Shown: in pieces, positions 1-57,270 of the stretch
Layout of the letters: each line of letters begins with the position of its first letter
Numbering within the stretch: position 1 is the stretch's first letter
Assembly (NCBI RefSeq): GCF_003790525.1
Contig: NZ_CP033635.1
Strand: one strand, 5' to 3'
DNA from: Escherichia coli
Lineage (GTDB): Bacteria > Pseudomonadota > Gammaproteobacteria > Enterobacterales > Enterobacteriaceae
DNA length: 64,000 bases
Program-made: the position numbers and the translations under genes
The notes under the pieces: generated by a model
Told to the model about the DNA's origin: nothing
What the model saw: only the letters and a program-made list of their open reading frames with translations
Database searches by the model: none

Positions 1-1217
1 AAGGCGTTAATCTTCACGCCAGCAGGGGAATGAATGCTTATTCCGACGGGGAGTAGGGCGAGGAATGCCTGCGCCCACTGTGGATTTTTTTCGCGCAGGA
101 CGGCGTGATACCAGGCGCGCAGTAGCGCCTCCTGCCAGTCGGTTTTCCCGGCCCAGCGCAGCAGTTCAACGGGGGTAGCCTGCAGTTGCGTTTGCCACCA
201 GTCGAGCGGAACCGCTGCAACTATCTGATACAGCCACCATGCGCGCTGGCCCAACTTTTCGCCTTTGGGCTTAGTTTCTTCCAGCGCATCGGCCTTCCAC
301 TCTGGTAAGAACGCCTCCGGGGCATCAAGGGCGACGCGCAGCATTTTTTCTTTGCCGGATAAGCCTTTTAGCCTTTCAAGTAAGGTCTCAGGAGCGGGGG
401 ATGAACTGAGCAACGGCGCTAACCGAGACTTCATGCGCGAGATCCAGGCGCTTTCCGGCAGACAACACAGTAACCGTGCCGCAGTTTGCCGCACCTCTTT
501 GCTGCGATCGGATAATGTCTGTTCCAGAAAGGCTTCGTCGTGTTGGGAGATCCCCACTTCCAGCACAGCCAGCAGCTGTGCGCGTTCGCGGGCATCCAGC
601 GAACTCATCTCCTGCGCCAGCCGATCGCGACCCTGTTCCGGGGCGCGAATGCGCATTTGCGTCAGATATTGCAGACGCTGTTCGGACGTGCCGTGCAGCC
701 ACATTTCTTCATCCAGCGGAGCGTCAGTGGAGGCGAGAACATAGCCCCAATCGGCGTTGATTTGCGCCAGCCAGCACCCGCGAGCGCCCAGAACATTGGA
801 CAGGATGCCGCGTAGAGATGGCTTTTGCGCTCCATAATTCAGCAATGCTGGTAACAGCAGGGGCGGAGGAAGAAGTTGACGACGGACCAATAGATCAAGC
901 GCCGACCACAGCAACCGCGGCGGTCCTTCTGACAGCAGCAGATGCAGCAGTCCCGCAAAAGCCGGGTTGTTTATTGGCTCGGCATTTTCTTTATCGATTT
1001 CCGGCAGCGGTGCGGGGTCAATCGCCTGCGGCACCCAGCCAGCCAGATGGCAGAGCGCCAGAACGCCCGCCGAGCGCAGTAGCTGTTGCTCTGCGGATGT
1101 GTTATTCGCCAGTTCAGACAGTAACAGCCCAATCTCACTTTGCGACGCCGACGGTGTAAACGCTTTTTTGTCTGTGCCGAGTAGCGCTGTGCGGGTTAAA
1201 TTTTGCCATTCGTTCAT
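1..1217 (-). CDS. hypothetical protein, partial (>=405 aa, runs off window start); translationally coupled partner of the SWIM gene; not in ORF track
   Basis: Own reverse-strand translation from ATG at 1217..1215, which overlaps the SWIM stop TGA (1216..1214) as ATGA; GGAGG lies 6 nt upstream. Reads MNEWQNLTRTALLGTDKKAFTPSASQSEIGLLLSELANNTSAEQQLLRSAGVLALCHLAGW... with no stop down to position 1. Leu/Ala-rich, helical-looking. Confidence 0.6.
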   Translation of the reverse strand, partial: MNEWQNLTRTALLGTDKKAFTPSASQSEIGLLLSELANNTSAEQQLLRSAGVLALCHLAGWVPQAIDPAPLPEIDKENAEPINNPAFAGLLHLLLSEGPPRLLWSALDLLVRRQLLPPPLLLPALLNYGAQKPSLRGILSNVLGARGCWLAQINADWGYVLASTDAPLDEEMWLHGTSEQRLQYLTQMRIRAPEQGRDRLAQEMSSLDARERAQLLAVLEVGISQHDEAFLEQTLSDRSKEVRQTAARLLCCLPESAWISRMKSRLAPLLSSSPAPETLLERLKGLSGKEKMLRVALDAPEAFLPEWKADALEETKPKGEKLGQRAWWLYQIVAAVPLDWWQTQLQATPVELLRWAGKTDWQEALLRAWYHAVLREKNPQWAQAFLALLPVGISIHSPAGVKINA

Positions 1218-2536
1218 TGTGCGCCTCCGGTTGCCCAAATGACGCTACCGGCAAGCCAGGCGCTACAGGGCGTCAGCTGCTGACCATCCCATTCCCCCAT
1301 TAGCATAAACGGCGCGCCGCCGCTGGCCGCCAGTAACCGCCAACCCTCGTCCGACGACAGGTGCGTCGGTAAGTGCTGGCCCTGTGTCGAGACGAATCGC
1401 CAGCCGCTCTCGTGCGGGTAAATCAATATTTCGCTTACTCGCAGCGGCAGAGGCCATTGCCAGGGATTCGCGCTAAGCCGCTGCGCCATGTCATGCAGCG
1501 CGTCCGGGAGGGGTAATTCTGCAAGCGGGAATCTTTCACCGCGGGTAAACGGCTCCACAACCCGCGCCCGTAGCGGTGATGCGCCAGGGAAAAAGGCAAG
1601 CGCGCCCTGGCAGACTTGCCCGGTGATAAAGTGCTGGGGAAAGTTTTTACTACCGTGTGAATAGTCCAGCAGTAGCGCGGTGCGGTGGCTCTTTTCTCCG
1701 TACAGCCAGACCCGGCGTCGCCACAGATTATTCCCTTCTTGCGCGCTTTGACCTAAGACCTGCCAGTTATCGAGGCAGGTTAATCCGTCAGTGACGTCGT
1801 GTTTATCCGGGGGTATTCCCAATGCCGCATGGAGATCGCTAAGTTGTGCCGGGGATAACATTTGTTGCTGGCGCCAGGCGTCAATAATCAGCTGTAGCTG
1901 CCCCAGTTCTTTGCACAGGCTCGATGGCCATACCTCGGCGGTAGTAAAATGAGTGGTCAGATTGTTCAGGCGAGCGGCAATTCCCGGTAGTTGGGCGTCG
2001 ACCATGCGGGCGGCGATCCCGGCAAAAGGCAACTGTTGTGCAGAGATCTGCGCCAGACCGTGGCGGATCAGGTCGTGCATCCACTGTTCGAGGAAATCCA
2101 GCCCCGCCGTCATTTTTTGGTTGCGTGCCGCTTCCCGTTTGGCGGCAGCCTGCGGGTCGGCAGCTTTTGCCTCAGCCTGCTCTTTCTTCTCTTCTTTGCG
2201 AACCGCCCGCTGCTGGCGCGAGGTTAGCCACTCGCTTACCCATTCCGGCGGCTCGCCAGCGGTGAAACTTGCGGTGTGTTGCACCTGGAGAAAAAGCAAC
2301 GCAAGGCTATGTTTACAGGGGAATTTACGGCTGGGGCAGGAACATTTACAGGCCAGATCCTGTCTGTCGATTCGTACCTGATAAGGGCGGGAGCCGCTAC
2401 CTTTACACTCTCCCCAGAAGGCAGCCTCGCTATATCCGAGCGTCGGCCATTTTGCGGGAGCAACCAGGCCACGAGCCGCTTTAACCGAGGCGTCATCGGG
2501 CGCCAGGGCTTGCACTGATTCAACGGTCAGTTCCAT
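1214..2536 (-). CDS. SWIM zinc-finger domain protein, 440 aa, function unknown
   Basis: ORF-track protein carries a CxCxnCxH motif (CKCSCPSRKFPCKHSLALLF) typical of SWIM zinc fingers, followed by a charged linker (RKEEKKEQAEAKAADPQAAAKREAARNQ); no resemblance to GltF; GC-rich. Confidence 0.75.
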   Translation of the reverse strand: MELTVESVQALAPDDASVKAARGLVAPAKWPTLGYSEAAFWGECKGSGSRPYQVRIDRQDLACKCSCPSRKFPCKHSLALLFLQVQHTASFTAGEPPEWVSEWLTSRQQRAVRKEEKKEQAEAKAADPQAAAKREAARNQKMTAGLDFLEQWMHDLIRHGLAQISAQQLPFAGIAARMVDAQLPGIAARLNNLTTHFTTAEVWPSSLCKELGQLQLIIDAWRQQQMLSPAQLSDLHAALGIPPDKHDVTDGLTCLDNWQVLGQSAQEGNNLWRRRVWLYGEKSHRTALLLDYSHGSKNFPQHFITGQVCQGALAFFPGASPLRARVVEPFTRGERFPLAELPLPDALHDMAQRLSANPWQWPLPLRVSEILIYPHESGWRFVSTQGQHLPTHLSSDEGWRLLAASGGAPFMLMGEWDGQQLTPCSAWLAGSVIWATGGAQ

Positions 2537-2649
2537 TACAATTCTCTATTGGCGTGGGGAAATCGATGGGGTCAAGGAGGCGTTAAGCAAAGCAGGAGGA
2601 GACTGTTTTCCGTAACAGCGTATTGCGCGTCCATCGCAAATTTGTAGTG

Positions 2650-2679
2650 AGTATAGCGGGCGGTAAATTCAGGAAACAA
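2650..2679 (-). promoter_or_regulatory. candidate sigma70 promoter for the SWIM operon (-35 TTGTTT, 18-nt spacer, -10 TATACT on minus strand)
   Basis: Hexamers read on the reverse strand about 115 nt upstream of the SWIM start codon; motif match only. Confidence 0.3.
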
Positions 2680-2725
2680 TGGCGGATAGCGGAAAGTGTA
2701 GTTTTTCGGAAAAAGATAACTTTAT

Positions 2726-2758
2726 CCCGTGTAACCCGTTTTAAGCGGGCTACACGGG
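2726..2758 (-). terminator. hairpin immediately 3' of gltD (13-bp stem, one mismatch, 7-nt loop), followed on the transcript by a U-containing stretch
   Basis: Inverted repeat cccgtgtaacccg / cgggctacacggg 11 nt after the gltD stop; the U tract is interrupted. Confidence 0.4.
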
Positions 2759-2768
2759 AGGCTGCAAT

Positions 2769-4199
<1,431 letters not shown>

Positions 4200-7100
4200 T
4201 TACTGCGCCTGCACGCGCAACTCTGCTGCGCTACGACTACGGTGACCCAGCAGTGCTTTTACATCACTGGACTTCGGTTTAACCAGCGCGAATTTCGTGG
4301 CGAAGGTTGACCAGTTCGCCAGAATCTCTTCACCGCGCTGGGAACCGGTATGCTGCACATGCTCGGTGATAAGACCACGCAGATGCTCTTCATGGATCGC
4401 CAAATCGTCAACGCTTAAGACCTCGACCAGTTCCGGGTTAACGCGTTTGCGGAAATCGCCGCTTTCATCGAGAACGTAAGCGAAGCCACCGGTCATGCCC
4501 GCGCCGAAGTTAACGCCGGTTTTACCCAGAATACAGACAATACCGCCCGTCATATATTCACAGCCGTTGTCGCCAATGCCTTCTACCACGGTGATAGCAC
4601 CGGAGTTACGTACGCCGAAACGTTCACCCGCGCGGCCTGCGGCATACAGACGACCTCCGGTCGCGCCATACAGGCAGGTGTTGCCGATAATGCTTGCTTC
4701 ATGGCTGCGGAAGGCTGAGCCAACCGGAGGACGAATGGCAATTAAGCCGCCCGCCATGCCTTTACCGACATAGTCGTTAGCATCGCCGGTCAGATACAGT
4801 TCCACGCCGCCCGCGTTCCACACACCGAAGCTCTGGCCTGCGGTGCCGTTGAAGTATGCTTTGATCGGATCGGCAGCCAGCCCCTGATCGCCGTGCGTCT
4901 GGGCGATATAGCCTGAAAGCGACGCGCCGACAGAACGATCGGTGTTGCGGATATCGAACCAGAAGGTTTTGCTCTGGCGTTCATCGACAAACGGTTTTGC
5001 CTGTTGCAGCAACTGCGCGTTCAGTAGGCCGTTATCAAACGGCGGGTTGTTTTCGGTGCAGTAGAGTGCCTTACCTGCATTTGGCTCGGCAGTTTCCAGC
5101 AGCTTCGACAGCGCCAGTTTCTGCTGTTTGGCGGTGAAACCGTCCAGCTCTTTCAGCAGGTCGGTGCGACCAATCAGATCCACCAGACGCGTTACCCCCA
5201 GCTGTGCCATCAGCTCGCGGGTTTCACGGGCGATAAACTCAAAGTAATTAGTCACTTTGAACGGCAGGCCGTGATAGTGATTCTTACGCAGTTTGTCATC
5301 CTGAGTTGCTACACCCGTGGCGCAGTTGTTCAGGTGGCAAATTCGCAGATATTTACAGCCAAGCGCTACCATCGGGCCAGTGCCGAAGCCGAAGCTTTCT
5401 GCGCCGAGAATCGCCGCTTTGATGATATCAACGCCGGTTTTCAGGCCGCCATCAACCTGCAAACGGATCTTGTGACGCAAGCCGTTGGCAACCAGCGCCT
5501 GTTGGGTTTCAACAAGCCCCAGCTCCCACGGACAGCCTGCGTATTTCACCGATGAAAGCGGACTTGCGCCGGTGCCGCCGTCATAGCCTGCGATGGTGAT
5601 TAAATCGGCATAAGCTTTTGCCACGCCAGTCGCGATGGTGCCTACGCCCGGTTCGGAAACCAGCTTCACGGAGATCATCGCTTTTGGATTGACCTGCTTG
5701 AGGTCGAAAATCAGCTGCGCTAAATCCTCAATAGAGTAGATATCGTGGTGCGGCGGCGGGGAGATCAGCGTCACGCCCGGCACCGAATAGCGCAGTTTGG
5801 CAATGTAAGGAGTGACTTTATCACCCGGTAACTGACCACCTTCACCCGGCTTCGCGCCCTGGGCGACTTTTATCTGAATGACGTCGGCATTGACCAGGTA
5901 CGCCGGAGTAACGCCGAAGCGACCGGACGCCACCTGCTTGATGCGCGACACTTTGTTAGTGCCATAGCGCGCCGGGTCTTCACCGCCTTCGCCGGAGTTT
6001 GAGTTACCGCCGATGCTGTTCATCGCTTCCGCCAGCGCCTCGTGGGCTTCCGGGCTTAACGCGCCGATAGACATCGCGGCGGTATCGAAGCGTTTAAACA
6101 GTTCGCTTGCCGGTTCAACATCGGCAATGTTGACTGCGTTTTCACCCGGCGTAATTGCCAGCAGATCGCGCAGCGTGGTTGCCGGACGCTCATTAACCAG
6201 CTTCGCGTATTCCTGATAGTCGCTATACTCGCCGCTCTGTACCGCCTGTTGCAGCGTGCGCACCACGTCCGGGTTGTAGGCGTGGTATTCGCCGCCGTGC
6301 ACGTATTTCAGCAGGCCGCCCTGGCTGATGGGCTTACGCGCCAGCCAGGCACGTTTCGACAGATTCAGCAGATCCTGCTGGAAGTCTTCAAAGCTAGCCC
6401 CCCCAATGCGGCTAACCGCCCCCTGGAAGCACAGGCCCACGACATCATCGTGCAGACCGACCGCTTCAAACAGTTTCGAGCAGCGGTAAGAGGCGATGGT
6501 GGAGATGCCCATTTTGGACATGATTTTGTACAAGCCTTTGTTGATGCCGTTACGATAGTTGAGCATCACGGTACGATAATCTTTGGCAATCGCGTGGGTG
6601 TCTACCAGACGGCCCAGCGTTTCATAGGCAAGGTACGGATAAATAGCCGTCGCGCCGAAACCCAGCAACACGGCGAAGTGGTGCGGATCACGGGCGCTGG
6701 CGGTTTCGACGATGATGTTGGCATCGCAACGCAGGCTTTGATCGACCAGACGGGTCTGGATCGCGCCAACCGCCATCGGAGCCGGAACCGGCAGGCGATC
6801 TTTAGCGATATTCCGGTCGGAGAGCACCAGCAGTACGGTGCCGCTACGTACCATTTTTTCGGCTTTGTCGCACAGTTCTTTCACCGTCGCTTCGAGCGTG
6901 GTTTTAGTGACGTCAAAGGTGATATCCAGCGTATCTGCGCGGTAGTGATCCTCTTTCATCGTCGTGAGCTGTTTGAAATCGGAATAGAGCAGAATCGGCG
7001 ATTTAAAGCTTAAACGGTGCGCCTGGCCTTCTGCTTCGCAGAAGACGTTCATTTCGCGGCCAATGCTGGTGGCGAGCGACATAACATGCGCTTCACGCAG

Positions 7101-8660
7101 CGGGTCGATTGGCGGGTTAGTCACCTGGGCAAATTGCTGGCGGAAGTAGTCGTAAATAATGCGCGGCTGACTGGAGAGCACGGCGAATGGGGTGTCGTCG
7201 CCCATCGAACCGACCGCTTCCTGACCGTTTTCACCCAGTACGCGGATCACCGAATCCAGCTCTTCCGCGCTGTAGTTAAATTGTTTCTGGTAGCTGGCAA
7301 GCGTGTCGTCGTCCAGTTCGCGGCTACCCACTTCTTCATCGGGCAGATCTTCAAACGGTACCAGACGGCGGACGTTTTTCTCCATCCACTCTTTATAAGG
7401 GTGGCGGCTTTTCAGATCGTCATCGGTTTCTGCCGAGTGCAGAATACGCCCACTGCGGGTGTCGATCACCATCAGTTCGCCTGGCCCCACGCGGCCTTTT
7501 TCGACCACTTCGTCAGGCTGATAATCCCAGATACCGACTTCAGAGGCGCAGGTAATGAGCTTATCTTTGGTGATGACATAGCGTGCCGGACGCAGACCGT
7601 TACGGTCGAGGTTACAGGCGGCAAAACGACCGTCAGACATCACGATGCCTGCCGGGCCATCCCACGGCTCCATATGCATGGAGTTAAAGTCAAAGAAGGC
7701 ACGCAGTTCCGGGTCCATATCCGGGTTGTTCTGCCAGGCGGGTGGCACTAACAGACGCATGGCGCGGATGATATCCATCCCGCCTGCCAGCAGCAGTTCC
7801 AGCATGTTATCCATGGAACTGGAGTCAGAGCCGGTTTCGTTGACGAACGGCGCGGCGTCGTGCAGGTCAGGGATCAGCGGCGTCTGGAATTTATAGGTAC
7901 GCGCACGCGCCCATTGGCGGTTACCAGTGATGGTGTTGATTTCACCGTTATGCGCGAGGTAGCGGAACGGCTGTGCCAGCGGCCAGCGCGGTACGGTGTT
8001 AGTGGAAAAGCGCTGGTGGAACAGGCAAATGGCCGATTCCAGACGCAGGTCCGCAAGATCCAGATAAAAGCGCGGCAGATCCGCCGGCATACACAGACCT
8101 TTATAGATGTTCACCAGATTCGACAGGCTACAGACGTAGAAGTCTTTGTCGGCTTCGAGACGCTTTTCAATGCGGCGGCGGGCGATAAACAGACGGCGCT
8201 CCATATCGCGTGGACGCCAGCCTGCCGGGGCGTTCACAAAAATTTGCTCAATGCGTGGCAGAGAGGAGAGGGCGATTTCACCCAGCACGCCTTCGTTAGT
8301 GGGGACATCACGCCAGCCCACAATCGACAATGTTTCGCGTTGCAGCTCTTCTTCAACGATGCGGCGTGCGGCAGCGGCGAGTTCAGGATCTTTATTCAGG
8401 AAGAGCATCCCGACAGCGTAGTTTTTTGCTAAACGCCAGCCGCGCTCCTGCGCAACGATGCGAAAAAAGCGATCCGGTTTTTGTAACAGCAAGCCGCAAC
8501 CGTCACCGGTTTTACCATCGGCGAGAATCGCGCCACGGTGCTGCATGCGGGCCAGTGCGTGTATTGCAGTACGCACTACCTTGTGGCTAGGTTCGCCTTC
8601 TATGTGGGCGATCAGGCCGAAACCACAGTTATCCCTCTCAAGGGATTTATCGTACAACAT
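4200..8660 (-). CDS. gltB: glutamate synthase large subunit (1486 aa; ORF-track N-terminal extension trimmed by 36 codons)
   Basis: ORF 4200..8768 contains MLYDKSLERDNCGFGLIAHIEGEPSHK..., the GltB N-terminus; the amidotransferase Cys follows the start. Confidence 0.93.
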   Translation of the reverse strand: MLYDKSLERDNCGFGLIAHIEGEPSHKVVRTAIHALARMQHRGAILADGKTGDGCGLLLQKPDRFFRIVAQERGWRLAKNYAVGMLFLNKDPELAAAARRIVEEELQRETLSIVGWRDVPTNEGVLGEIALSSLPRIEQIFVNAPAGWRPRDMERRLFIARRRIEKRLEADKDFYVCSLSNLVNIYKGLCMPADLPRFYLDLADLRLESAICLFHQRFSTNTVPRWPLAQPFRYLAHNGEINTITGNRQWARARTYKFQTPLIPDLHDAAPFVNETGSDSSSMDNMLELLLAGGMDIIRAMRLLVPPAWQNNPDMDPELRAFFDFNSMHMEPWDGPAGIVMSDGRFAACNLDRNGLRPARYVITKDKLITCASEVGIWDYQPDEVVEKGRVGPGELMVIDTRSGRILHSAETDDDLKSRHPYKEWMEKNVRRLVPFEDLPDEEVGSRELDDDTLASYQKQFNYSAEELDSVIRVLGENGQEAVGSMGDDTPFAVLSSQPRIIYDYFRQQFAQVTNPPIDPLREAHVMSLATSIGREMNVFCEAEGQAHRLSFKSPILLYSDFKQLTTMKEDHYRADTLDITFDVTKTTLEATVKELCDKAEKMVRSGTVLLVLSDRNIAKDRLPVPAPMAVGAIQTRLVDQSLRCDANIIVETASARDPHHFAVLLGFGATAIYPYLAYETLGRLVDTHAIAKDYRTVMLNYRNGINKGLYKIMSKMGISTIASYRCSKLFEAVGLHDDVVGLCFQGAVSRIGGASFEDFQQDLLNLSKRAWLARKPISQGGLLKYVHGGEYHAYNPDVVRTLQQAVQSGEYSDYQEYAKLVNERPATTLRDLLAITPGENAVNIADVEPASELFKRFDTAAMSIGALSPEAHEALAEAMNSIGGNSNSGEGGEDPARYGTNKVSRIKQVASGRFGVTPAYLVNADVIQIKVAQGAKPGEGGQLPGDKVTPYIAKLRYSVPGVTLISPPPHHDIYSIEDLAQLIFDLKQVNPKAMISVKLVSEPGVGTIATGVAKAYADLITIAGYDGGTGASPLSSVKYAGCPWELGLVETQQALVANGLRHKIRLQVDGGLKTGVDIIKAAILGAESFGFGTGPMVALGCKYLRICHLNNCATGVATQDDKLRKNHYHGLPFKVTNYFEFIARETRELMAQLGVTRLVDLIGRTDLLKELDGFTAKQQKLALSKLLETAEPNAGKALYCTENNPPFDNGLLNAQLLQQAKPFVDERQSKTFWFDIRNTDRSVGASLSGYIAQTHGDQGLAADPIKAYFNGTAGQSFGVWNAGGVELYLTGDANDYVGKGMAGGLIAIRPPVGSAFRSHEASIIGNTCLYGATGGRLYAAGRAGERFGVRNSGAITVVEGIGDNGCEYMTGGIVCILGKTGVNFGAGMTGGFAYVLDESGDFRKRVNPELVEVLSVDDLAIHEEHLRGLITEHVQHTGSQRGEEILANWSTFATKFALVKPKSSDVKALLGHRSRSAAELRVQAQ

Positions 8661-9333
8661 ATCGTGAACCTCCCCCAGGCTCTGCGGGAACCCCACTTCC
8701 GAACCGCTGCGCACGGGCACAGAAAGAGCGTGGCGACGGGGTTTGCGTGTCATACGCGCACCTCGCATTCGCCCCCTTGTTGTCCTTTTCGCATCGGTTA
8801 ATACGGTGAAGAGGGGATCTCAATTACTGCATAAATATGATGAGCAGGCTGCTCATCCAGAAAGCTTCCAGCGGATTTCCAACTTATCGGGAAAGCTGAT
8901 ACAGGTCAAATGGCAAGCTTATTGGTACAGAAATGTGCTTTAGCGCAAAATTCTTTATTAATTGTCTGAAATTAAAGTGGATTTTCTATTTAAGGCTAAA
9001 AGGGCGTCGTTAGAGAAACAGTCAATTCCTGACTGTCATAAAGGCGTGTTAACCCTTATCCTGCCTTGAACTGACGAGAAAACCAGCATTTTATACTGCC
9101 TTAATTGGTAATAACGTTTCATGCTACTGTTTTTGCCTAAAATCCATAAGGAGATAAAAAAATCTGACACAAGATAAGCAAAAGTGATTTATGTGATTGT
9201 GCATGAAATTTCGGTAATTTTGATTGATTATGCAGTTGATAAAAGCAGGCCGGGACGATTGATCCAGGTCATCGCCGAATTGAGCTAAAAATGGCAGGCT
9301 TTGGCCTCTTTTCAAGGCGCGGTCTATCAGATT
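8661..9333. promoter_or_regulatory. AT-rich divergent gltB / yhcC control region
   Basis: About 670 bp non-coding, AT-rich; known in E. coli to carry the gltBD promoter with Lrp/IHF/CRP sites; individual sites not mapped here. Confidence 0.45.
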
Positions 9334-41627: not shown

Positions 41628-43253
41628 ATGACAGTATTCAACAAATTTGCTAGAAGTTTTAAATCTCATTGGTTGTTGTATCTTTGTGTTATTGTTTTTG
41701 GTATTACGAACTTAGTCGCCTCTTCCGGAGCGCATATGGTTCAGCGATTGCTGTTCTTCGTCCTGACCATCCTGGTTGTTAAACGTATATCATCCCTTCC
41801 GCTTCGCCTGCTTGTTGCCGCACCATTTGTGTTACTGACTGCGGCAGACATGAGTATTAGCCTCTATTCATGGTGTACCTTTGGTACAACTTTCAATGAT
41901 GGATTTGCGATTAGTGTGCTGCAGAGTGATCCGGATGAAGTTGTGAAAATGTTGGGGATGTATATCCCTTATCTATGTGCTTTTGCTTTTTTATCCCTTC
42001 TTTTTTTGGCAGTAATAATAAAATATGATGTTTCCTTGCCGACAAAAAAAGTGACAGGAATATTATTGCTGATTGTCATTTCGGGCAGTTTATTTTCAGC
42101 TTGTCAATTTGCTTATAAAGATGCAAAAAATAAAAAAGCGTTCAGTCCATATATACTAGCGTCTCGATTTGCTACCTATACACCGTTTTTCAATCTCAAT
42201 TATTTTGCTTTAGCAGCGAAAGAGCATCAAAGATTACTCTCAATTGCAAACACGGTGCCGTATTTTCAATTATCAGTCAGGGATACAGGTATTGATACCT
42301 ACGTGTTGATTGTGGGGGAGTCTGTACGTGTCGACAATATGTCTTTGTATGGATACACACGCTCTACGACACCGCAAGTCGAAGCACAAAGAAAACAGAT
42401 CAAACTGTTTAATCAAGCAATAAGCGGTGCACCTTACACTGCGCTGTCGGTTCCCCTTTCTTTAACTGCTGATTCTGTTTTGAGTCATGACATTCATAAT
42501 TACCCGGACAACATTATTAATATGGCTAATCAAGCAGGATTTCAGACTTTCTGGCTAAGCTCGCAATCCGCTTTTCGGCAGAATGGTACAGCAGTTACCA
42601 GTATCGCCATGCGCGCCATGGAAACAGTCTATGTCAGAGGATTTGATGAATTGTTGTTGCCGCATTTATCGCAAGCGTTACAGCAAAAGACGCAGCAAAA
42701 GAAACTGATTGTTCTTCATTTAAATGGAAGCCATGAACCGGCTTGTAGCGCCTATCCGCAATCCAGCGCCGTGTTTCAACCGCAGGACGATCAGGATGCC
42801 TGCTATGACAACTCCATTCATTACACAGATAGTTTGCTAGGTCAGGTTTTTGAATTATTAAAAGATCGCCGCGCCTCGGTCATGTATTTTGCCGACCACG
42901 GCCTGGAACGCGACCCTACGAAGAAGAACGTCTATTTTCATGGAGGCAGGGAGGCCAGCCAGCAGGCATATCATGTCCCGATGTTTATCTGGTATAGCCC
43001 CGTTCTTGGGGATGGCGTGGATCGCACAACGGAAAACGATATCTTTTCCACTGCGTACAATAATTACCTTATTAATGCGTGGATGGGGGTAACAAAGCCG
43101 GAACAGCCGCAAACGCTGGAGGAAGTGATTGCACACTATAAAGGAGACTCACGGGTTGTAGATGCAAACCATGATGTTTTCGATTTTGTGATGCTAAGAA
43201 AGGAGTTTACTGAGGATAAGCAAGGTAACCCCACCCCTGAAGGGCAGGGTTGA
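41628..43253 (+). CDS. yhbX: putative phosphoethanolamine transferase (sulfatase/EptA-like inner membrane protein) YhbX
   Basis: ORF contains MTVFNKFARSFKSHWLLYLCVIVFGITNLVASSG...; membrane N-terminus then sulfatase-like domain; AT-rich 5' half. Confidence 0.85.
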   Translation: MTVFNKFARSFKSHWLLYLCVIVFGITNLVASSGAHMVQRLLFFVLTILVVKRISSLPLRLLVAAPFVLLTAADMSISLYSWCTFGTTFNDGFAISVLQSDPDEVVKMLGMYIPYLCAFAFLSLLFLAVIIKYDVSLPTKKVTGILLLIVISGSLFSACQFAYKDAKNKKAFSPYILASRFATYTPFFNLNYFALAAKEHQRLLSIANTVPYFQLSVRDTGIDTYVLIVGESVRVDNMSLYGYTRSTTPQVEAQRKQIKLFNQAISGAPYTALSVPLSLTADSVLSHDIHNYPDNIINMANQAGFQTFWLSSQSAFRQNGTAVTSIAMRAMETVYVRGFDELLLPHLSQALQQKTQQKKLIVLHLNGSHEPACSAYPQSSAVFQPQDDQDACYDNSIHYTDSLLGQVFELLKDRRASVMYFADHGLERDPTKKNVYFHGGREASQQAYHVPMFIWYSPVLGDGVDRTTENDIFSTAYNNYLINAWMGVTKPEQPQTLEEVIAHYKGDSRVVDANHDVFDFVMLRKEFTEDKQGNPTPEGQG

Positions 43254-55380: not shown

Positions 55381-57270
55381 ATGGCTGAATTCGAAACCAC
55401 TTTTGCAGATCTGGGCCTGAAGGCTCCTATCCTTGAAGCCCTTAACGATCTGGGTTACGAAAAACCATCTCCAATTCAGGCAGAGTGTATTCCACATCTG
55501 CTGAATGGCCGCGACGTTCTGGGTATGGCCCAGACGGGGAGCGGAAAAACTGCAGCATTCTCTTTACCTCTGCTGCAGAATCTTGATCCTGAGCTGAAAG
55601 CACCACAGATTCTGGTGCTGGCACCGACCCGCGAACTGGCGGTACAGGTTGCTGAGGCAATGACGGATTTCTCTAAACACATGCGCGGCGTAAACGTGGT
55701 TGCCCTGTACGGCGGCCAGCGTTATGACGTGCAATTACGTGCCCTGCGTCAGGGGCCGCAGATCGTTGTCGGTACTCCGGGCCGTCTGCTGGATCACCTG
55801 AAACGTGGCACTCTGGACCTTTCTAAACTGAGCGGTCTGGTTCTGGATGAAGCTGACGAAATGCTGCGCATGGGCTTCATCGAAGACGTTGAAACTATTA
55901 TGGCGCAGATCCCGGAAGGTCATCAGACCGCTCTGTTCTCTGCAACCATGCCGGAAGCGATTCGTCGCATTACCCGCCGCTTTATGAAAGAGCCGCAGGA
56001 AGTGCGCATTCAGTCCAGCGTGACTACCCGTCCTGACATCAGCCAGAGCTACTGGACTGTCTGGGGTATGCGTAAAAACGAAGCACTGGTACGTTTCCTG
56101 GAAGCGGAAGATTTTGATGCGGCGATTATCTTCGTTCGTACCAAAAACGCGACTCTGGAAGTGGCAGAAGCCCTTGAGCGTAACGGCTACAACAGCGCCG
56201 CGCTGAACGGTGACATGAACCAGGCGCTGCGTGAGCAGACACTGGAACGACTGAAAGATGGTCGTCTGGACATCCTGATTGCGACCGACGTTGCGGCCCG
56301 TGGCCTGGACGTTGAGCGTATCAGCCTGGTAGTTAACTACGATATCCCGATGGATTCTGAGTCTTACGTTCACCGTATCGGTCGTACTGGTCGTGCGGGC
56401 CGTGCTGGCCGTGCGCTGCTGTTCGTTGAGAACCGTGAGCGTCGTCTGCTGCGTAACATTGAACGCACCATGAAGCTGACCATTCCGGAAGTTGAACTGC
56501 CGAACGCAGAACTGCTGGGCAAACGTCGTCTGGAAAAATTCGCCGCTAAAGTACAGCAGCAGCTGGAAAGCAGCGATCTGGATCAATACCGTGCACTGCT
56601 GAGCAAAATTCAGCCGACGGCAGAAGGTGAAGAGCTGGATCTCGAAACTCTGGCCGCCGCACTGCTGAAAATGGCACAGGGTGAACGTACTCTGATTGTT
56701 CCGCCAGATGCGCCGATGCGTCCGAAACGTGAATTCCGTGACCGTGATGACCGTGGTCCGCGCGATCGTAACGACCGTGGCCCGCGTGGTGACCGTGAAG
56801 ATCGTCCGCGTCGTGAACGTCGTGATGTTGGCGATATGCAGCTGTACCGCATTGAAGTGGGCCGCGATGATGGTGTTGAAGTTCGTCATATCGTTGGTGC
56901 GATTGCTAACGAAGGCGACATCAGCAGCCGTTACATCGGTAACATCAAGCTGTTTGCTTCTCACTCCACCATCGAACTGCCGAAAGGTATGCCGGGTGAA
57001 GTGCTGCAACACTTTACGCGTACTCGCATTCTCAACAAGCCGATGAATATGCAGTTACTGGGCGATGCACAGCCGCATACTGGCGGTGAGCGTCGTGGCG
57101 GTGGTCGTGGTTTCGGTGGCGAACGTCGTGAAGGCGGTCGTAACTTCAGCGGTGAACGCCGTGAAGGTGGCCGTGGTGATGGTCGTCGTTTTAGCGGCGA
57201 ACGTCGTGAAGGCCGCGCACCGCGTCGTGATGACTCTACCGGTCGTCGTCGTTTCGGTGGCGATGCGTAA
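55381..57270 (+). CDS. deaD: DEAD-box ATP-dependent RNA helicase DeaD/CsdA
   Basis: ORF contains [21 protein letters not shown]...; motifs [26 protein letters not shown]; Arg/Gly-rich C-terminal tail. Confidence 0.96.

Follow-up and report, generated by a model that had tools for sequence, protein, structure and literature searches.

Gene content of the locus

The window, a stretch of 64,000 nucleotides (nt) from Escherichia coli contig NZ_CP033635.1, is the reverse complement of positions 3525997-3589996 of E. coli SMS-3-5 (NC_010498.1), with one mismatch only. Its first 2,536 nt contain the first two genes, the promoter-proximal third, of an operon of five tightly packed genes (7.4 kb). The rest of the operon lies beyond the left window edge and is covered by the SMS-3-5 record (locus L001). 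In order, the genes encode a SWIM zinc-finger protein, a DUF5691 protein, an ATPase of the AAA_5/MoxR type, a DUF5682 protein and a CoxE-type VWA protein. This five-gene cassette is located between gltD and nanQ. The original prediction, made on the window alone, had read the high guanine-plus-cytosine (GC) content of the SWIM gene as fitting a horizontally acquired, non-ancestral segment. The observation is real but modest; its reading as a compositional signature of horizontal transfer is invalid, though the segment is accessory. The following features border or make up the window part of the cassette:

1..1217, minus strand: DUF5691 gene, 3' two-thirds, second gene of the operon (RefSeq SMS-3-5 annotation; Pfam PF18944, E 1e-122)
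1214..2536, minus strand: SWIM zinc-finger gene, 440 amino acids (aa), first gene of the operon (annotation)
2537..2768, minus strand: cassette-specific leader of 232 nt from the gltD stop to the SWIM start, the right-hand end of the variable segment
2725..2759, minus strand: strong hairpin within the leader, 10 nt past the gltD stop (RNA fold)
2769..4187, minus strand: gltD, core flank (annotation)
4200..8660, minus strand: gltB, core flank (annotation; 20200-24660 in L001)

The complete DUF5691 protein comprises 534 aa. The initial 388 nt of its gene lie left of the window, and the gene overlaps the SWIM stop by 4 nt. Window bases 1-2,768 are 100% identical in SMS-3-5 and a handful of other strains. 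Left of the operon in SMS-3-5, a 123-nt remnant of yhcG is followed by two hypothetical genes of 40-46% GC and then by nanQ. The sole difference between the window and the SMS-3-5 RefSeq sequence, at window position 9235, is intergenic, between gltB and yhcC.

E. coli H17 has an identical leader (100%), and the one in a locus of cryptic Escherichia (L005) shows 97.8% identity; the intergenic sequence of empty sites is unrelated to it. Scans of the leader revealed neither a sigma-70-like promoter ahead of the SWIM gene nor an Rfam match. The hairpin has a 14-bp stem and a folding energy of -27 kcal/mol (z -5.0 versus shuffles). It is terminator-like, lacks a clean U tract and was not called by a consensus terminator scan. 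Given the lack of a clean U tract and of a recognised sigma-70-like promoter, transcripts from gltBD may in part extend into the cassette.

Base composition and codon usage

The two 60-nt lines of the SWIM gene on which the original prediction was built contain 38/60 (1261-1320) and 41/60 (1321-1380) G+C, exactly as counted there. Region 1-2536 has a GC content of 58.7%, the SWIM open reading frame (ORF) 59.1% and the whole cassette 57.7%. The background is 52.3% in the window, 51.5% past gltB (8769-64000) and 52.0% in the local core, so the claim of GC-richness relative to the E. coli or local average holds. A surplus over the neighbouring core genes was found only marginally. GltD and gltB reach 56.3% and 56.6%, which leaves a margin of only 1-3 GC points for the cassette and its window part, and nanE and nanK on the far side of the cassette reach 58.1% and 57.6%. 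The GC-rich stretch is also not confined to the SWIM gene, as all 1-kb bins over positions 1-8000 have 55.8-59.0% GC.

A dominance of G and C in third codon positions, described in the original prediction, does not set these genes apart. The GC content at third positions (GC3) is 0.628 in the SWIM gene and 0.617 in the DUF5691 gene, lower than in gltD (0.653), gltB (0.649), ubiV (0.683) and yhbW (0.664). The standout is the second position, with a GC2 of 0.49 in the SWIM gene versus 0.405 in the pooled core, which indicates an effect of amino-acid composition. The Karlin-type codon bias B(g|core) of 0.28-0.34 and the codon adaptation index of 0.39-0.48, calibrated on 12 highly expressed genes of the region, are both within the range of ordinary weakly expressed core genes. 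Relative to the flanking core, the region is thus indistinguishable in codon usage and nearly so in GC content, the outcome that the original prediction had named as its refutation.

Amino-acid composition and codon choice were separated by re-encoding the proteins of an 80-kb neighbourhood with the synonymous codon frequencies of the local core genes. The expected GC content was compared with the observed one. Among 53 core genes, the difference between observed and expected GC has a standard deviation of 1.7 points; for GC3 it is 4.4. The cassette genes gave the following values:

SWIM: expected 58.4%, observed 59.2%, difference +0.8 points
DUF5691: expected 57.0%, observed 57.3%, difference +0.3 points
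AAA ATPase: expected 55.0%, observed 55.6%, difference +0.6 points
VWA: expected 55.1%, observed 55.5%, difference +0.4 points
DUF5682: expected 57.3%, observed 59.5%, difference +2.3 points

Re-encoding with core codons reproduces the GC content of the SWIM and DUF5691 genes; the surplus is therefore a matter of amino-acid composition, not of codon use. The GC surplus of the flagged region is shown to be essentially amino-acid composition, encoded with native E. coli codon preferences. In the cassette proteins, Leu, Ala, Trp, Pro and Gln are overrepresented, and Ile, Lys, Val, Gly, Tyr, Phe and Asn underrepresented. In contrast, the GC-richness of gltB and gltD comes from codon choice, with observed values 3.1 and 3.8 points above expectation, respectively. 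Among the controls, yhbX (-6.9 points) and the hypothetical gene beside nanQ (40% GC, -7.2 points) stood out as genes with truly foreign codon use.

The region is a cautionary case for genome scans, a 6-point GC surplus in an accessory segment that is almost wholly due to amino-acid composition. Re-encoding proteins with host codon frequencies is a cheap way to separate foreign codon usage from an unusual protein. Applied here, it flagged yhbX and the 40%-GC gene left of the window instead.

GC surplus across the gene family

The comparison was extended to 52 homologous loci, each in a species-representative genome and flanked by 5 kb of sequence or more, with a flank GC content of 41-72%. They represent proteobacteria, cyanobacteria, planctomycetes, chloroflexi, bacteroidetes, actinobacteria and verrucomicrobia. 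The cassette is richer in GC than its own flanks in 50/52 loci, by 3.5 points on average (sign test, p 6e-13). With about +4.7 GC points over its immediate flanks, the SMS-3-5 cassette is unremarkable for the family. E. coli K-12 contains the distantly paralogous operon yehLMPQ (L004 8597-14945), which has 55.0% GC between flanks of 50-51.5%. It is present in 5,352/5,426 complete E. coli genomes (98.6%) and is a core operon. Since the same surplus occurs in 50 of the 52 loci and in this core paralogue, it travels with the gene family and is uninformative on origin. The yehLMPQ operon adjoins genes for WGR (yehF) and DUF4132 (yehH/yehI) proteins, which may also belong to that system.

GC-biased gene conversion at a recombination hot spot could have raised the whole 8-kb block of cassette and gltBD, irrespective of gene content. 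The GC-rich block indeed covers window positions 1-8000, E. coli shows unusual polymorphism and mosaicism in gltBD and the nan flank, and gltB, gltD and the DUF5682 gene exceed their expected GC3 by 7.6 to 10.4 points. However, the GC3 excess of the SWIM and DUF5691 genes is only +1.2 to +2.8 points, inside the core standard deviation. Their GC excess is located at codon positions 1 and 2, and the same surplus recurs in other phyla and at the unrelated yeh locus. Such a conversion is quite improbable as the cause.

Distribution in the gltD-nanQ interval

The cassette was detected in 33/5,426 complete E. coli genomes (0.6%). It is always chromosomal, with nucleotide identities of 95.7-100%. Homology to K-12 reaches precisely as far as the gltD stop codon (window position 2769) and restarts one base past the nanQ stop. 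The interval between gltD and nanQ (10059-18768 in L001, 6618-15013 in L003) is a multi-allelic hot spot. K-12-type fimbrial genes, gltF-yhcADE (43% GC), fill it in 1,293/5,426 genomes; this count led to the rejection of the idea that the majority of E. coli carries the fimbrial cassette. Other E. coli strains harbor yhcG alone (UTME-6), an empty site (AZ 187) or IS1 (AR_0085). In the more divergent carriers H17 and H20, an intact yhcG lies behind the five-gene cassette. Two further lineages have these five genes in the same order and orientation between gltD and nanQ: a contig with core proteins of 'unclassified Escherichia' (cryptic clade), and Klebsiella huaxiensis.

In SMS-3-5 and close relatives, the two hypothetical genes of 40-46% GC (L001 10187-10874, 5.1-5.8 kb left of the window) replace most of yhcG. 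Their codon use is strongly atypical, the larger one being the gene with the deviation of -7.2 points, and neither gave a Pfam or PADLOC match.

Neither an integrase nor a transposase is annotated in the region. It holds no tRNA gene, and its repeats are at chance level, with none at the borders. Homologues of DUF5682 occur in 44/72,556 plasmid records, mostly megaplasmids, and all have less than 60% identity. In a phage collection, a single match was obtained, on a 14-kb phage-labelled fecal contig.

The genomic islands of E. coli that are associated with tRNA and integrase genes resemble the cassette in being strain-specific, in their location in a hot spot between core genes and in a GC content off the genome mean. 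The cassette differs from them in the lack of integrase, transposase, tRNA and direct repeats, in a GC content above the genome mean and in native codon usage.

The intergenic sequence of empty sites is common with occupied sites only over the yhcG-proximal 128 nt. On the gltD-proximal side, the final 55 nt of this sequence have given way to the cassette border in occupied sites. Cassette relics in empty sites, which would prove loss, were not found. The replacement at the border and the lack of relics make gain and loss indistinguishable from the junctions. The cassette borders consist of a stop codon and a shared intergenic stretch, as homologous replacement would give. The cassette would be maintained or, if it moves at all, exchanged among enterics by homologous recombination in the conserved flanks.

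Divergence and history

Synonymous divergence (dS) of the cassette was compared with that of its flanks at three distances:

SMS-3-5 versus cryptic clade: cassette 0.175-0.28 (length-weighted about 0.22), flanks 0.26-0.39 (yhcC, gltB, gltD, nanQ, nanK, nanE)
SMS-3-5 versus K. huaxiensis: cassette 1.0-1.33, flanks 0.82-2.7 (saturated)
Within E. coli: cassette 0.01-0.16, yhcC 0.07

At the protein level, the enteric comparison gave identities of 93.7% for the AAA ATPase, 93.6% for GltD and 94.5% for GltB. Outside the enteric set, the nearest homologues of the SWIM protein among the matches listed are 50-55% identical (a metagenome contig, Bilophila, Rhodocyclaceae and Rheinheimera). An alignment-based scan of species genomes yielded no enterobacterial representative among the best 80 loci. 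A scan of species genomes with single proteins found no relative, while the alignment-based scan did recover loci. In the data sampled, no organisms besides E. coli, unclassified Escherichia, K. huaxiensis and two other Klebsiella strains are represented in the 90%-identity clusters of ATPase and VWA.

These data bear on a recent genomic island from a GC-rich donor that retained the base composition and codon usage of this donor, the reading closest to the original prediction. Such an island would fit the GC content of 58.7% versus 52% in the local core, unequalled by any core segment of the same size, and the mildly raised dinucleotide distance. It would also fit the occurrence in 0.6% of the complete E. 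coli genomes and the many homologues in GC-rich Betaproteobacteria. It is contradicted by the native codon choice of the two window genes (+0.3 to +0.8 points), with a GC3 under that of gltBD, and by the SWIM homologues outside the Enterobacteriaceae, which among the matches listed are just 50-55% identical. Divergence within E. coli (95.7-100% at the nucleotide level) and from the cryptic-clade and Klebsiella copies is in step with the flanks. Mobility genes, tRNA and border repeats are missing, and the core paralogue as well as 50 of 52 unrelated hosts show the same GC surplus. This recent-import reading is largely refuted and very unlikely. Of the claim of horizontal acquisition, the accessory nature (33 of 5,426 genomes, slot empty or differently filled elsewhere) stands and makes acquisition plausible; composition offers no proof of it, and a recent or foreign origin is unsupported.

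The cassette was not gained recently, nor from a donor of foreign composition. An old residence follows from the same slot in the cryptic clade and K. huaxiensis and from a cassette dS about equal to that of the flanks. The occupation of one slot in both Escherichia lineages indicates that the cassette has been in Escherichia at least since the split from the cryptic clade. It is accessory but old, and it is devoid of mobility genes.

A strictly ancestral cassette would have been present in the common ancestor of Escherichia and Klebsiella, followed by vertical descent and independent losses in most lineages. The identical slot, order and orientation in E. coli, cryptic Escherichia and K. huaxiensis are in agreement with this, as are per-gene amino-acid identities that track the flanks, comparable dS values and native codon usage. 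On the other hand, many losses are needed (E. albertii, Salmonella, K. pneumoniae and about 99% of E. coli), the empty sites hold no cassette relic, and the 90%-identity clusters of ATPase and VWA are limited to few Escherichia and Klebsiella in the sampled data. The saturated Klebsiella dS has no dating power. Strict ancestry is a serious but less likely alternative.

An import of the gltD 3' end together with the cassette from the cryptic clade or Klebsiella was considered and rejected. GltD of SMS-3-5 is closest to gltD of E. coli with an empty slot (98.1%). No gltD haplotype is common to the cassette carriers, which rules out a simple co-imported flank. The gltB-gltD region is unusually polymorphic in E. 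coli, with pairwise nucleotide identities of 94-98% among eight strains. Over the last 632 nt of gltD, 3,358/5,415 genomes are just 90-95% identical to SMS-3-5. Nucleotide divergence between SMS-3-5 and K-12 is 3.4-4.3% in gltB-gltD and 0.4-2% over most of the window. The gltB-gltD haplotypes are mosaic and do not follow the adjacent slot content.

Cassette proteins and related systems

The AAA ATPase (PF07728, E 1e-38) is 41% identical to YehL (E 2e-78). The VWA protein (PF05762, E 3e-52) is 38% identical to YehP, and the DUF5682 protein (PF18934, E 2e-268) is 27% identical to YehM. The SWIM protein and YehQ have the zinc finger in common only; the remainder is unrelated. BLASTP detected no similarity between DUF5691 and YehQ.

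The gene order SWIM-DUF5691-AAA-DUF5682-VWA is conserved in roughly ten phyla. Across these phyla (loci L008-L088), identity to the E. coli proteins is 67-88% for the ATPase, 57-84% for VWA, 41-67% for DUF5682, 33-55% for SWIM and 24-40% for DUF5691. The K. huaxiensis proteins show the same spread, with 94% for the ATPase and 57% for DUF5691. The ratio of nonsynonymous to synonymous divergence (dN/dS) lies at about 0.02-0.1 in AAA, VWA and DUF5682 but at about 0.2-0.3 in SWIM and DUF5691; within E. coli it is about 0.27 for DUF5691. In Nocardia anaemiae (L054 9986-12844), SWIM and DUF5691 form a single ORF of 952 aa. The fusion suggests that the two proteins work together.

In an alignment of 40 sequences, the Walker A motif (GxPGTxK) of the ATPase and the MIDAS motifs DQSGSM, GGGTDI and DLxEGG of the VWA protein are conserved. 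The solved ATPases nearest to the cassette ATPase are midasin AAA domains and NorQ (NorQ E 5e-6). The N-terminal domain of DUF5682 has invariant G-x-R-H, E and G-x-x-H motifs at positions 10-13, 37 and 210-213. Weak Pfam matches to ChaN/Tiki were obtained for 2/37 DUF5682 members. For the Tiki/TraB comparison, the Foldseek E-value is just 0.085, and Foldseek searches of the Protein Data Bank (PDB) with DUF5682 returned nothing at E <= 0.001. By sequence, the DUF5682, SWIM and VWA proteins had no match in the PDB. PADLOC-DB 2.0 yielded a marginal IetA P-loop match for the ATPase (E 1e-3, 30 residues); the remaining four proteins had none there, and the NCBIfam search was unproductive. A literature search found no papers naming DUF5682 or DUF5691.

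YehL represents one of seven MoxR subfamilies, and its function is not known (PMC3893208). In K-12, yehL and yehM are repressed by H-NS (PMC3686432). The yehLMPQ operon encodes the same four protein types as the cassette (AAA_5 MoxR, DUF5682/YehM, VWA_CoxE/YehP and SWIM) and likewise exceeds its flanks in GC. It differs in the order AAA-DUF5682-VWA-SWIM, in the lack of a DUF5691 gene and in its presence in 98.6% of the E. coli genomes versus 0.6% for the cassette. Besides yehLMPQ, E. coli thus has another, rare version of this uncharacterised MoxR system. Current understanding is not overturned; the five genes form a variant, likewise uncharacterised, of the YehL-type operon.

The couples NorQ/NorD, CoxD/CoxE, CbbQ/CbbO and RavA/ViaA share with the cassette an AAA_5/MoxR ATPase beside a CoxE-type, MIDAS-bearing VWA protein. 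The architecture expected of MoxR/VWA couples is a hexamer with a VWA domain plugging its pore (PMC9976466), and a general mechanism has been described (PMC9976466, PMC7159879). In contrast to the client-bearing couples, no client enzyme gene is linked in about 60 cassette loci, whereas SWIM, DUF5691 and DUF5682 always accompany the pair.

The Tiki/TraB/PrgY/ChaN/erythromycin-esterase superfamily has paired GxxH-type motifs and a Glu, to which the invariant residues in the N-terminal domain of DUF5682 may correspond. However, no significant sequence match connects the two, and DUF5682 adds a C-terminal alpha-solenoid of about 450 residues that is absent from known members.

Proposed mechanism

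By analogy to NorQ/NorD and CoxD/CoxE, the MoxR hexamer and its MIDAS-bearing VWA partner would form an ATP-driven remodelling switch. The VWA protein would engage the pore of the ATPase hexamer, and ATP hydrolysis would remodel a bound partner. This partner may be internal to the system, because a client gene was never found linked and three further proteins are always present. From its motifs, DUF5682 is a candidate for the catalytic output, with a putative hydrolase domain resembling the Tiki/TraB/ChaN superfamily on a HEAT-like solenoid. The fast-evolving SWIM-DUF5691 pair may serve in target recognition, as an adaptor or in trigger sensing. Such a system may work either in housekeeping remodelling or in conflict.

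Tentatively, these steps could amount to a self-contained, ATP-gated hydrolase machine of a new functional kind, in which MoxR/VWA licenses a Tiki/TraB-like protease or esterase and SWIM-DUF5691 picks the targets. It might act in conflict or regulate proteolysis. If this is true, E. coli carries a core version of the machine, yehLMPQ, and a rare second version. Leads for work on the YehL-type system are the predicted Tiki/TraB-like domain in DUF5682/YehM, the SWIM-DUF5691 fusion and the static ATPase and VWA proteins versus the fast SWIM and DUF5691 proteins.

Alternatively, the cassette may belong to the 'ternary' MoxR-vWA systems and act against phages or in conflict, with the ATPase and VWA as a threshold switch, SWIM-DUF5691 as invader sensor and DUF5682 as effector. 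MoxR-vWA conflict systems have a precedent (Kaur, Burroughs, Iyer and Aravind 2020, PMC7159879). They share with the cassette a MoxR-vWA core with large conserved components and a patchy spread, which for the cassette includes cyanobacteria, actinobacteria, planctomycetes and chloroflexi. The position in a variable hot spot, the self-contained operon without a conserved client gene nearby across phyla and the several-fold faster evolution of SWIM and DUF5691 relative to ATPase and VWA would also suit such a role. Pfam, however, finds no VMAP, iSTAND, FtsH or beta-propeller, the third components that define those systems, in the cassette, and the scores for bpMoxR (21.6 bits, cut-off 27) and nSTAND6 (17 bits, cut-off 27.7) are below threshold. 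The architecture is rigid and has no variable effector domains. PADLOC is blank but for the marginal P-loop match. An ATPase with 67-88% identity across phyla is unusually static for an immunity gene, the paralogue yehLMPQ belongs to the E. coli core, dN/dS stays below 0.3 throughout, and the cassette is near-absent from phage records and small plasmids. A conflict system of this type is unlikely.

Taken together, composition, history and mechanism are probably best described by an old accessory cassette with an amino-acid-driven GC content that encodes a putative MoxR-VWA machine. Several results speak against parts of this account. By bulk GC and dinucleotide distance, the region is not wholly indistinguishable from the core. 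The maximum GC of any 2,536-nt segment in the 71 kb of surrounding core is 57.2%, below the 58.7% of the region. The dinucleotide signature, a comparison proposed in the original prediction, is mildly high, with a delta* of 93 for the window part (top 3% of local core segments of the same size) and 57 for the cassette (top 7%); these values carry no amino-acid correction. All composition values refer to about 71 kb of local core sequence, not to the whole genome. The DUF5682 gene has a GC3 excess of +7.6 points, unexplained by amino-acid composition. As to history, E. albertii, Salmonella enterica and K. pneumoniae have neither the MoxR nor the fimbrial cassette in the slot; Salmonella has codBA-like genes there, and E. 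albertii only a yhcG remnant. With an empty slot in the outgroups and in most E. coli, parsimony indicates that the empty arrangement is probably ancestral and that the cassette was gained at some time. Similar dS values fit vertical descent or an old transfer with the flanks alike, and the Klebsiella dS is saturated. Concerning the mechanism, the Walker B position is an invariant Glu-Glu in the 40 sequences. The usual Walker B motif has Asp-Glu. No functional study of YehL, YehM, YehP or YehQ was found in the literature search.

Other features of the window

The clearest codon-usage outlier of the window is yhbX (41628-43253, plus strand), which encodes a phosphoethanolamine transferase and has 43% GC with a GC3 of 0.42. 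It is also present in K-12. Between positions 56001 and 59241 (mtr, yhbW and the edge of ubiV), the divergence between SMS-3-5 and K-12 is raised to 3.6-5.7%; this is unrelated to the cassette.

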